Below, piece by piece: positions 48,083 to 53,485 of a DNA stretch of 64,000 nt. Numbering within the stretch: the stretch's first letter is position 1; each line of letters starts with the position of its first letter. The position numbers were made by a program, and so were the translations under genes. This DNA comes from Dictyostelium discoideum (lineage: Eukaryota): assembly GCA_000004695.1 (NCBI GenBank), contig CM000151.3, forward strand, positions 768,001 through 832,000, in the 5' to 3' direction. The notes under the pieces were generated by a model. It worked only from the letters and a program-made list of their open reading frames with translations. It searched no databases and had not been told where the DNA came from.

Positions 48083-49023
48083 TCATAATTTACTTACATA
48101 TTTTCCAATAAATGATTGACTTTCCTCTTTTTCTTTTTCTTTTTCTTTCTCTTTTTCAACCTTTGGTTCTTCGTAGACCAACTTTAAAATATCCTCAGAG
48201 AAATCGATGATAACAAATAATTGATCTTTATCATCACCAGTAACTGGTGGTGATTTCTTTAATTGATAATTACTTGCAACAATATTCATATTATTTGAAT
48301 CTAAATTAATCTTTAAAAATTCATATTGTAATGAAGAATCATTTAAATTACCCTATATATTTATATCCATATATCAATTTATATAAATTCAATTTGAATT
48401 TGAATTTAACAATATATTTAAAAATAAAAAAAAGGATGGTATTAGTAAAATAAAAAAATAAAAATAAAAATAAAAACTATTATTATATAACAAACCTTTG
48501 GTAATGAAGAAAAAGATAAATTACTTGGATCTTTATCAGATACAACTGTTGTTTTAAATAAATCACATGATTTTTGATACAACTAAAAATAATTTTAATG
48601 TAATAATAAATTTGATAAATATATTATTTTTTATAAATTATATATATTATATATTACAAATTATATATTATATAATATATATTATATAATATATATTATA
48701 TAAATTATAATTTATATATTATGATGATGATGATGATGACTTACTGATCTACTTTCTTTTGTTAATGAATTTTTACATTTAATTTGAATTGCTTTTTTAA
48801 AATTTATAGAATCAACAGAAGTGATAGAATTGGTAGAGTGTGGTATTAATTTAGGTTTGAATAGAATTTTACATGATTTCGATTGATCTTCATTATGATA
48901 CATTGTAAATTCAATATCCTTTTGATTATTTAAATTTGAAACTGTTATACTTTCACTAATTTGTAATATTATTGTAAATAATGCAATAACAATAGATATT
49001 ATTGTTATTTTATTAAATTTCAT
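48083..49023 (-). CDS. small secreted protein (~211 aa) with a (KE)n stretch; exons 48745..49023, ~48496..48582, 48083..48352
   Basis: Signal peptide MKFNKITIISIVIALFTIILQISES. Exon 1 ends AGA TCA|gtaagt. The intron carries complex (AT)-rich repeats. Exon 2 is LYQKSCDLFKTTVVSDKDPSNLSFSSLPK. Exon 3 is GNLNDSSLQYEFLKINLDSNNMNIVASNYQLKKSPPVTGDDKDQLFVIIDFSEDILKLVYEEPKVEKEKEKEKEKEESQSFIGKYVSKL*. The exon sum is 636 nt. Exon-2 coordinates are accurate to about 1-2 nt. Confidence 0.6.
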
Positions 49024-49457
49024 TTTATTTATTTGTATATTTGTATATTTATTTATTTATTTATTTATTTATTTGTTTGTTTGTTTGTTAATTTATTTAT
49101 GTGTTAGTTTGTTCTTTCTTTCTTTCTTTCTTTCTTATTTCTTTATTTTTTTATATATTTGTGTTGTCCAATGAAAAATGAAATTCAAACTTGAAATTAA
49201 AAAATAATTTTCATATTATTTGAAACCTTGTAAATTTTTTAAAAAAAAAAAAAAAATAAAAAAAATAAAAAAAATAAAAAAATAAAAAATAAAATAAAAA
49301 ATATATATGTTTAAAAAAAAAAAAAAGTTTAATAAAAAAAATTATTTGTTAAAAAAAATAGGTGGAAAGGAATAATCAATTTAAGTTCATTGTAAGAAAT
49401 AAAAAAATAAAAGAAATAACTTTAGTGAAAAAAAAAAAAAAAACTAAAAAAATAAGA

Positions 49458-49488
<31 letters not shown>

Positions 49489-49598
49489 GTTTAGTTGAAA
49501 AATATTATTTGTTTAAAAAAAAAATAGGTGTAAAAGGAATAATTAATTTAAGTTAATTGAAAAAGAAAAAAATAAAATATCATAATAAATCACTTTGG

Positions 49599-49641
<43 letters not shown>

Positions 49642-49880
49642 ATATTGATTAGTGCGCAACTTAAATTCCAAATTATTTATTAGTGTGTAATTATAAGCGA
49701 TTTCAAGAAAACAATTGAGATGGGCAACGCAACTAGCATCTTATTTTGTGATGCTCAAAATAAGTTATATAATAAAAAATTAATAAATTAAATTTCAGTT
49801 ATAAAAATAAAAAAATAAAAAAAACAATTTAGATGAGTATTTGGCCTCTCTTATTTTGTGATGCTCAAAATAAATTATTC

Positions 49881-49913
<33 letters not shown>

Positions 49914-50431
49914 GTTAAAGTTAAAAAAAAATAAAATAAAATAAAAAAAAATAAAAATAATAAAAGTATACTCCGTTTTTGATTTTATTGTTGTTCAACG
50001 TTGTTTTTTTTTTTTTTTTTTTATACTTATCAAATCACTTTTCCACCAGTCATTTAATGACGTAAGTTATCTTGATATTTTTATTGTTTAATTTTGGAAT
50101 GTTGAAAAAAAAAAAAAAAAAAAAATTTTAAATAAAATTCTTTAACGCTGTGTTGAAAACGGAGTTTTTTTTTTTCAAAACGATGTGAAAACGGAGTGAC
50201 TTTTTTCTTTTTTTTCGAGTATTTGTTGATTGTTTATATGGAAAATGAAGTAATCCTGTTTTAACAATGCGAACCTTTTGAGAATAAATTTTTTTTTTTT
50301 TTTTTTTTTATTCTATTCTTTATTATTATTTTTTTTTTTTTAATAATTATTGATTGTTATTATCTACAAATAAAAATAAAAACAAATAAAAACAAATAAA
50401 AAAAAAATAAAAAAATAAAAAATAAATAAAA

Positions 50432-51693
50432 ATGTCAACATTGACACCACCAACATTTTTAACAGTAGAATTATGCCAAACAGCATTTAACAATTTATTT
50501 AAATTATATTATACAGATCATGACCATAGTGAAGAGGAGGGGGGTGGTCATGAAGGACATATTCATGCTGGTGTTACGTGTGAAGAAGATCCAGATAAAC
50601 AATATTCCAAACCAATTCATATAGCAGCAGTTTTCATTATTCTTGGTGTAAGCTTTCTTGGTACGATGATACCAATTTTAGCAACCCATATAAAACAATT
50701 AAGAATTCCAAGATATGCAATCATCGTTGGTAAATCCATCGGTATTGGTGTTGTATTGTCATGTGCTTTCATTCACATGTTACTACCAGCCGTCATTTCT
50801 CTCACATCGGAATGTTTACCAGAATCATGGCATGAGGGTTACGAAGCCTATCCATACCTCTTTGCCCTTCTTGCTGGTATCGTTATGCAATTCATTGATT
50901 TCGTAGTTCTCCAATACTTAACTAACAAAGAGGCTAAAAAACATTTATCATCTTCAAATGACAATATCTCACTTCACGATGTTCATACTCCAGGTGGTGG
51001 TGATGGCCATACTCCAGGTGGTGACGAACATTCAAAATCCCATTGTCACGCTCCAAGTGGTGCTCATGGAAGTCATGTCCATGGTGGACTTTTAATGGAT
51101 CCAGCTGCTCTTAAAACTATTGAAGCTTATTTATTAGAATTTGGTATTACAGTTCATTCAGTTTTCATTGGTTTGGCTGTTGGTGTTGTTGATGATTCAA
51201 CTTTAAAAGGTAAATTAATTATTCTTTAAAAAAAGATTTTATTTATACATGCACATATTAATTTTCCATCTTTTTTTTTTTCCTCCTCTCCTAAAAAATA
51301 GCTTTATTAGTTGCATTAGCATTCCATCAATTTTTTGAAGGTGTTGCACTTGGTTCTAGAATTTCAGATGCTAAATTAACATCACATTGGCATGAAGCTT
51401 TATTAACATCAATTTTTGCAGTTTCAGCACCAATTGGTATTGCAATTGGTGTAGGTGTTGCCTCTTCTTTAAATGTTAATGGTCCAACCTATTTAATTGT
51501 TCAAGGTGTTTTTGATAGTGTTTGTGCTGGTATTTTACTTTACATCGGTTTCTCTTTAATGATTAAAGATTTCCCTGAAGATATGGAAGAATTATGTAGA
51601 GGTAAAAAATATGAATACTTTTTACGTGCTGGTTTATTTATAGGTCTCTGGGTTGGTGCTGCAATGATGGCTTTCATTGGAAAATATTTGTAA
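50432..51693 (+). CDS. ZIP (ZRT/IRT-like) metal-cation transporter; exons 50432..51209 and 51311..51693
   Basis: ZIP signature helices HSVFIGLAVG and ALAFHQFFEGVALGS. His-rich cytoplasmic loop HDVHTPGGGDGHTPGGDEHSKSHCHAPSGAHGSHVHGG. Donor AAA G|gtaaat. The 101-nt intron has a polypyrimidine tract, and the acceptor is ctttattag|TT. The total is 1161 nt, or 387 codons. Confidence 0.85.

Positions 51694-52253: not shown

Positions 52254-53485
<1,232 letters not shown>

Follow-up and report, generated by a model that had tools for sequence, protein, structure and literature searches.

The 64,000-nucleotide stretch of Dictyostelium discoideum chromosome 2 analysed here, which we call the window, contains a divergent intergenic spacer of 1.4 kb. 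On one side of the spacer lies a 103-codon minus-strand open reading frame (ORF; 48712-49023), which is the first exon of the neighbouring gene, and on the other side lies a ZIP transporter gene on the plus strand (ATG at 50432), which has two exons (50432..51693) and an intron at 51210-51301. This report concerns a short element with the core ACGGAGT that is repeated in the promoter of the ZIP gene, and a hairpin-forming repeat that lies further upstream in the same spacer. The spliced ZIP product is identical to XP_645494.1 / Q75JD1 of D. discoideum AX4, annotated as a “ZIP zinc transporter protein” on the 8.48-Mb chromosome 2 record. The three closely related ZIP genes of D. discoideum are zplA-C (PMC5758549). 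The two relatives of the present gene could be named via members of their clusters (the chromosome-3 gene Q54T89, and the gene duplicated in AX4, Q556U8, which has two accessions and is zplC), and by elimination we infer that the gene at 50432 is zplB. The first-pass annotation had described the spacer as a divergent promoter region with a GC-richer island, and this is the case: the GC fraction is 0.20-0.23 at 49600-50300 and 0.10-0.15 in the flanks. Dictyostelium core promoters usually consist of a TATA-like box and an oligo-dT run. Because AATAAA followed by T21 at 50283..50309 (+), ~120 nt before the ATG, has this architecture, we read it as the presumed core promoter of zplB.

In this spacer, three copies of gaaaacggagt had been noticed, two direct and one inverted; all three were confirmed, the earlier coordinates being off by only 1-3 nt. 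GAAAACGGAGT is found exactly on the plus strand at 50155-50165 and 50187-50197, and the inverted copy, AAAAACGGAGT, lies on the minus strand at 49970-49980 with one mismatch. Elsewhere in the window GAAAACGGAGT has no match; chance alone would give 0.48, and three were not reached in any of 100 shuffles. Copy 1, the inverted one at 49970..49980, is shared with a second D. discoideum lineage and is absent at that position in D. firmibasis and D. dimigraforme, so that it is confined to the D. discoideum lineage. Copy 2 (AAAACGGAGT followed by T11; 50156..50165, +) is kept in all four zplB promoters that we compared, and copy 3 (AAAACGGAGTGA, 50188..50199, +), which matches the full consensus, is invariant in the second lineage, D. 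firmibasis and D. dimigraforme. The two direct copies are spaced by 32 bp, lie about 100-150 bp upstream of the presumed core promoter, and are each preceded by a companion motif CG(A/C)TGTG: CGCTGTG (CGNTGTG; 50146..50152, +) lies 6 nt upstream of copy 2, and CGATGTG (50181..50187, +) directly adjoins copy 3. A long-range stem between ACTCCGTTTTT (49970) and AAAACGGAGT (50156) was considered and rejected, because its upstream arm is present in D. discoideum alone.

Relatives of the ZIP gene were found by a protein search with exon 1 of zplB, and the promoters were taken from the encoding contigs; orthology was based on cluster membership, pairwise identity and synteny. The zplB promoters came from the window, the second D. 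discoideum lineage (L001), D. firmibasis (L002) and D. dimigraforme (L011), and the zplA promoters from D. discoideum (L005), D. cf. discoideum (L008), D. citrinum (L009), D. firmibasis (L006) and D. dimigraforme (L010). zplC was represented by D. dimigraforme (L003) alone. The remaining loci were a pair of divergently arranged ZIP genes of D. purpureum (L004) and a ZIP gene of Acytostelium subglobosum (L007). In total, ~140 kb of dictyostelid DNA with roughly 60 intergenic regions was covered. The ZIP paralogues are 61-65% identical in protein sequence and their promoters are otherwise unalignable; the genes next to them differ among the paralogue loci, the ZIP gene being the sole gene in common.

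All related ZIP genes that we examined, from seven social-amoeba taxa, had AAAACGGAGTG upstream, and the motif was found almost nowhere else. With both strands counted, the 12,380 nt of ZIP-upstream DNA contain 25 copies of ACGGAGT and the remaining 131,328 nt a single one (Fisher P = 5.6e-26), which lies inside a retrotransposon ORF. Because the motif was first noticed at zplB, a fair test leaves out all zplB loci; in this replication set, 15 ACGGAGT were found in 5,749 nt (P = 3.3e-20). Poisson P values for single promoters ranged from 1.7e-2 down to 1.6e-11, the latter for D. purpureum alone, where the spacer between the two ZIP genes holds five copies, two near one gene and three near the other. 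The zplB promoters hold three copies in the window, three in the second lineage and two each in D. firmibasis and D. dimigraforme; zplC of D. dimigraforme has one, and zplA has two in each of the five species, one of those in D. dimigraforme reading GCGGAGTG. Thus the element, which is kept at the zplB orthologues of D. firmibasis and D. dimigraforme, recurs at the paralogues zplA and zplC. Its sites appear as invariant islands both in the five-species zplA alignment and in the four-taxon zplB alignment.

The element is found in both orientations and at distances to the ATG of -136 to -590. The two zplA copies are opposite in orientation and 85-120 bp apart, one being sense and the other antisense relative to the ZIP gene, while the zplC copy is antisense only and the copies at D. 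purpureum P0010 are antisense. An unbiased search for enriched 7-mers in five semi-independent promoters ranked ACGGAGT, CGGAGTG, AACGGAG, AAACGGA and AAAACGG at the top after A/T low-complexity words, each of them occurring in 5/5 promoters. From 25 non-redundant sites the consensus is AAAA[A/G]CGGAGTG[A], with the core GGAGTG. In Acytostelium (Group 2, 43% GC), the ZIP gene has nine GGAGTG in its 1,158-nt upstream spacer and three in 5,929 nt elsewhere (P = 1e-5); the extended form of the element is rare there. A Myb site (YAACGG) was considered and rejected and the core taken to be CGGAGTG, because several copies in D. purpureum are without AAC (TTTACGGAGTG, GTGTACGGAGTG).

The arrangement of half-sites next to the element also recurs. 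CGNTGTG-N0-6-(A)CGGAGT was seen in all zplB promoters and in D. purpureum, with CGATGTG enriched 4 vs 1. CACTT-N6-GGAGTG was seen in the zplA promoters of 5/5 species, and GGAGTG-N7-CACTYC twice in D. purpureum (GGAGTG-N7-CACTTC) and also in Acytostelium, as GGAGTG-N7-CACTCC. In the D. discoideum zplA promoter (L005, 2553-2612), the sense ACGGAGTGA is also flanked by a direct repeat of CCATTACACA, the arrangement being cctCCATTACACAaaaaatccactttaaaacggagtgaagtatCCATTACACAtat; the upstream copy of this repeat is conserved in 4/5 species.

Copies 2 and 3 of the zplB promoter lie in a conserved non-coding block of 263 bp (50025..50287, +), from ACTTATCAAATCAC to TGAGAATAA, that aligns in four taxa. 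This block is the least diverged part of the spacer and is more conserved than synonymous sites: its identity to the window is 98.5% in the second D. discoideum lineage, 83.8% in D. firmibasis and 80.8% in D. dimigraforme, compared with 87.5%, 67.0% and 74.8%, respectively, at the 4-fold sites of zplB. Between the block and the ATG, expansion of low-complexity (AAAT)n DNA has made the distance vary among the taxa, from -240 to -390. A sub-element of the block, TGACGTAAGTTATCTTGATATTT (50058..50080, +), is identical in both D. discoideum lineages and D. firmibasis and carries one inserted base in D. dimigraforme. We take it to be a CRE-like half TGACGTAA plus an inverted GATA-like TTATC/GATA, and it includes a consensus 5' splice site, GTAAGT (50062-50067). 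Other conserved pieces of the block are ACTTATC(A/G)AAT(C/A)ACTTTTCC, CGAGTAT(T/C)TGTTGAT and ATGGAAA(A/T)TGAAGTAATCCTGTTT.

Because it recurs at ZIP genes across taxa and almost nowhere else, the element is very probably a binding site for a transcription factor, as predicted from the sequence. Its exclusiveness to ZIP genes, its retention at paralogues, its mixed orientation and variable distance, and the recurrent geometry of the half-sites all point to a factor that would co-regulate these genes, and the occurrence in both orientations fits a site that acts at the DNA level. We consider it likely, on the basis of these sequence comparisons, that ACGGAGT is a dictyostelid cis-regulatory element that marks the promoters of the ZplA-C clade and is the predicted site of a factor co-regulating ZIP importers. 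The suggestion of the first-pass annotation that the iterated motifs of the spacer are transcription-factor sites therefore holds for the GAAAACGGAGT copies, given their presence at orthologues and paralogues and their near-absence elsewhere, and fails for the hairpin units described below; the motif copies and the hairpin repeat are two unrelated things. As for the mechanism, a putative sequence-specific DNA-binding protein would recognise the element in either orientation and co-regulate the ZIP paralogues. Binding might occur as a dimer, or together with a partner at the neighbouring half-sites, CGATGTG or CACTT. As the signal, the zinc (metal) status of the cell seems likeliest, by analogy with Zap1 and the ZRE in yeast, bZIP19-23 and the ZDRE in plants, and the LZA of C. 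elegans. Zinc status is the most economical guess because these known eukaryotic systems share the architecture. The comparisons show that the motif exists, is conserved, is specific to ZIP genes and occurs in either orientation; binding by a protein, the sense of its regulation and metal as the signal are proposals, and by this analogy zinc responsiveness of the element is plausible.

The architecture in question is that of yeast Zap1/ZRE, plant bZIP19/23 with the ZDRE and metazoan MTF-1 with the MRE, in which at least two copies of a ~10-bp element lie a few hundred bp upstream and ZIP importer paralogues are co-regulated. The consensus sequences themselves are not conserved in the dictyostelid ZIP promoters, which differ in this respect: neither the ZRE (ACCTTNAAGGT) nor the ZDRE (RTGTCGACAY) was found there at up to one mismatch, and the MRE (TGCRCNC) gave isolated matches in these promoters, none of them conserved. 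One such match, TGCGCAC at 49652-49658 (-), lies just upstream of hairpin unit 1 and is probably due to chance, since conservation fails already in the second D. discoideum lineage. A metagenome contig with a plant-type ZIP gene (L077) carries two palindromes of the ZDRE type, the known zinc-deficiency element of plants, ATGTCGACAT (2299-2308) and ATGTCGACAC (2426-2435), ~480-610 bp before the start codon. These ZDREs served as an accidental positive control and have the same layout as the dictyostelid motif.

A close parallel in design is the LZA (low zinc activation) element of C. elegans, found at zipt-2.1, zipt-2.3 and zipt-7.1 (PMC5714235). Like the dictyostelid element, it is a short sequence common to the promoters of several ZIP paralogues, is conserved in the orthologous promoters of related species where the flanks are not, and was found by the same comparative logic (PMC5714235). 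The LZA is an enhancer that is active in both orientations and at variable distance (PMC5714235), and the dictyostelid element is likewise present in both orientations over the range of distances given above. A GATA factor acts alongside the LZA (PMC5714235), and the zplB block contains the GATA-like TTATC/GATA. The two differ in that the LZA is 19 bp long, has a central ATGA and was proven by mutation to be necessary and sufficient for activation in zinc deficiency (PMC5714235), whereas the dictyostelid element is known from its sequence alone.

Several points weigh against this interpretation. The link to metal is one of association only, and a shared developmental or growth-phase regulator could serve instead. 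The pooled P values overstate the evidence because orthologous sites are not independent, a problem that the tests on single lineages address. GGAGTG was not enriched upstream of non-dictyostelid ZIP genes (GC-rich metagenome eukaryote loci), and the element is, as far as we have seen, dictyostelid-specific. The evidence comes from ~140 kb of dictyostelid DNA, in which the ZIP loci were those of zplA-C, the D. purpureum pair and the Acytostelium gene. Finally, part of the conserved block could be a 5' untranslated region (UTR) or a 5'-UTR intron, as GTAAGT at 50062 and a polypyrimidine tract with AG at 50219 are both conserved; an intron running from 50062 to 50219 would leave the interpretation of the sites at the DNA level unchanged.

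The likeliest alternative is that the element is a real factor site common to the ZIP genes and that it answers to a signal other than metal, such as growth versus development, prestalk or prespore cell type, or phagocytosis and infection. We regard this as possible, and clearly less likely than regulation linked to metal. It is only the identity of the genes that connects the motif to zinc, and the neighbouring conserved sub-elements, TGACGTAA and TTATC/GATA, resemble general sites. A report that the Zpl genes respond to infection with M. marinum “in complex manners” (PMC7858047) also counts in favour of a non-metal signal. However, among ~60 intergenic regions the motif was found at ZIP genes only, which is more typical of a dedicated homeostatic regulon, and known zinc systems have a matching architecture (PMC5714235; the two ZDREs at the plant-type ZIP gene of L077).

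We also compared the element with the human ZTRE, CACTCCCCCGGGAGTG, which is present in the SLC30A5 promoter and is bound by ZNF658 (PMC4333095). The 3' half of the ZTRE, CGGGAGTGA, can be set against the dictyostelid ACGGAGTGA with one inserted G and a different first base, and both elements are found at the promoters of zinc transporters. Paired inverted half-sites, as in the ZTRE, are seen in CACTT-N6-GGAGTG of zplA and in GGAGTG-N7-CACTCC of Acytostelium. However, of the ZTRE consensus CACTCCC..GGGAGTG the half-site GGGAGTG occurs in only 2/12 ZIP upstream regions, and what is common to the two elements is the 6-7-nt core GGAGTG(A) only. The zplB copies, moreover, are direct repeats without a second half-site, and to our knowledge the KRAB zinc-finger family is not expected in Dictyostelium. 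The ZTRE also differs in its action: a KRAB zinc-finger protein uses it to repress ZnT (efflux) genes in response to zinc (PMC4333095). The resemblance is thus a lead and not membership, and a shared 6-7-mer may be a coincidence. That the dictyostelid element is an ancient relative of the ZTRE, the two having in common a half-site (C)GGAGTG(A) for a zinc-sensing C2H2 zinc-finger protein akin to Zap1 and ZNF658, seems to us doubtful. If it were true, zinc homeostasis through this half-site would predate the split between Amoebozoa and Opisthokonta, and the element would be a handle for purifying the first amoebozoan zinc-sensing transcription factor.

Another possibility, which we think improbable, is that the block forms part of a transcript, whether a long 5' UTR, an intron of the 5' UTR or a noncoding RNA of its own, and that ACGGAGU acts as RNA, being a protein-binding or structural element or taking part in control by an upstream ORF (uORF). 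In its favour, the conservation begins right after a T21 run and stops before another T-run, and GTAAGT (50062), the polypyrimidine tract up to AG (50200-50219) and an ATG at 50238 are conserved, the ATG in four taxa. This ATG opens ATGGAAAATGAAGTAATCCTGTTTTAA (50238-50264), which encodes MENEVILF*; the ATG and the first eight codons are kept in all four zplB promoters, and the ATG could be that of a uORF if the transcript starts upstream. However, the uORF is 8 codons long in D. discoideum and 20-21 codons in D. firmibasis and D. dimigraforme, and the nucleotides past the stop are conserved irrespective of frame. The block carries no coding signal. RNA structure is lacking as well: the fold z-score of the block is +1.43, meaning that the minimum free energy is weaker than that of shuffled sequences, compensatory changes were seen at 0/47 consensus pairs, and neither an Rfam match nor a DUSE was found. 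The sites also lie on both strands relative to the ZIP gene, which speaks against an element read in RNA.

The hairpin repeat lies upstream of the block. The annotation had described a tandemly duplicated unit of ~55 nt; the repeat is real, but the unit is not uniform, its similarity being patchy and its period 110-113 nt. The 23-mer TTATTTTGTGATGCTCAAAATAA has exactly two matches in the window (49741-49763 and 49851-49873), and none of 100 shuffles gave two. Exact identity between the units spans 25 nt (49739-49763 and 49849-49873), and an upstream sub-block matches at 16/18 positions (49705-49722 vs 49818-49835); between the two lies a segment of 16 nt in unit 1 and 13 nt in unit 2 that cannot be aligned. 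Unit 1 (49705..49766, +) thus consists of AAGAAAACAATTGAGATG, the variable 16 nt and TCTTATTTTGTGATGCTCAAAATAA, and unit 2 occupies 49818..49873 (+). The stem folds as claimed, with 8-9 bp that are A-U apart from one C-G. The isolated hairpins have free energies of -6.5 and -4.2 kcal/mol and z-scores of -2.1 and -3.3; when the whole unit is folded, a competing structure wins over the hairpin, with a z-score of about -1.

The second D. discoideum lineage has both hairpin units, in which the ATG of the unit-1 ORF is changed to AGG, 6 nt are deleted and the loop of unit 2 carries a G>A change, while D. firmibasis and D. dimigraforme have neither the units nor the heptamer GATGCTC in their orthologous promoters. 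Over 49624-49983, 336 nt could be aligned between the two D. discoideum lineages, with 24 mismatches (~7%) and 46 gap columns, a divergence comparable to the 12.5% at 4-fold sites, whereas over 50044-50283 there are just 4 mismatches in 240 nt. The units are not conserved in other dictyostelid orthologous promoters and diverge at a roughly neutral rate between the two lineages. We also considered a small coding ORF or an alternative first exon in the units (MGNATSILFCDAQNK... and MSIWPLLFCDAQNK..., with a common frame through the 25-mer) and rejected it, as it is not conserved: the 6-nt deletion in the second lineage preserves the frame, but the peptide is not conserved.

From these observations, the hairpin units are probably a young, D. 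discoideum-restricted tandem duplication of ~110 bp of spacer DNA without function. It is possible in principle, and in our view quite unlikely, that the repeat is functional in D. discoideum only, as a young palindromic site for a protein or as a small RNA. In favour of this, no difference separates the two copies of the 25-mer, which show one change in 50 nt against the second lineage while the segment just upstream is scrambled; the isolated hairpins reach z-scores of -2 to -3; and an alternative stem of (A/G)GCATC with GATGC is possible in all four copies. However, 3.6 changes would be expected in those 50 nt at the local mismatch rate of ~7%, so that the exactness of the 25-mer is not significantly beyond that rate (Poisson P about 0.13), the weak A-U stem lies within DNA of ~80% A+T, the ATG of unit 1 is lost in the second lineage, the units are missing from the two other species, and GATGCTC occurs in no other ZIP promoter. 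The alternative that the hairpins or the motif block encode small structured RNAs, also raised earlier, found no support from Rfam, DUSE, fold z-scores or covariation. ARAGORN detected no tRNA. Rfam gave no match at the gathering score in the whole window, and at E <= 10 on 48900-50500 it gave nothing credible (three weak hits, E 3-10). DUSE (WCCCAYAA) is absent between 28436 and 62132, and hence from the spacer. The Class I and DUSE-driven RNA genes of Dictyostelium are likewise small GC-richer islands in AT-rich spacers, sometimes clustered and followed by T-runs (PMC7919456). The spacer differs from them in having no DUSE, no Rfam match, no conserved terminal stem and no compensatory change, and a Class I RNA gene was rejected, as the defining features (PMC7919456) were not found. 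The neighbouring hairpins do not merit follow-up.

The reading that all repeats, ACGGAGT included, arose by chance or as neutral products of duplication events within low-complexity DNA draws on the several recent tandem duplications in the spacer (the ~110-bp hairpin pair and a ~167-bp pair at 49336-49600), and we prefer it for the hairpin units, but for ACGGAGT we regard it as refuted and scarcely credible as an account of all the repeats, since it cannot explain the motif at 61-65%-identical paralogues with unalignable promoters, in D. purpureum and in Acytostelium. The ~167-bp units themselves (49336-49440 and 49497-49600) are recent and each end in a long A-run, with the pattern ATTATTTGTT..AATAGGTG.AAA.GGAATAAT.AATTTAAGTT.ATTG....

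Published work lists seven Zpl and four ZnT proteins for Dictyostelium and describes how they act and are regulated as poorly understood (PMC5758549, PMC5770829, PMC7858047). In the literature that we searched, we found no zinc-responsive element of Dictyostelium and no report of zpl expression under zinc limitation, and a search for the motif string returned primers only; the ACGGAGT element is thus apparently undescribed. An element of 10-12 bp that is specific to ZplA-C and extends from Group 4 species to Acytostelium makes the transcriptional control of zinc transporters directly testable and offers a good way into the experimental study of zinc-dependent transcription in amoebae, in an organism that is widely used as a model for metal-based (“nutritional”) immunity against intracellular bacteria.

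Two further features of the locus were seen outside the zplB promoter. A second conserved island, at 49144-49263 on the side of the minus-strand neighbour, has 0 mismatches in ~120 nt between the two D. discoideum lineages and can in part be traced in D. dimigraforme (AATGAAATTCAAA). We read it as the probable promoter or 5' UTR of that neighbour. Downstream of zplB, the ORF at 52254-53237 (-) has 327 codons, almost all of them for serine and over 300 of these in an uninterrupted run. This extreme trinucleotide-repeat coding tract falls in DNA with a GC content of 40-46% and a strong GC skew.

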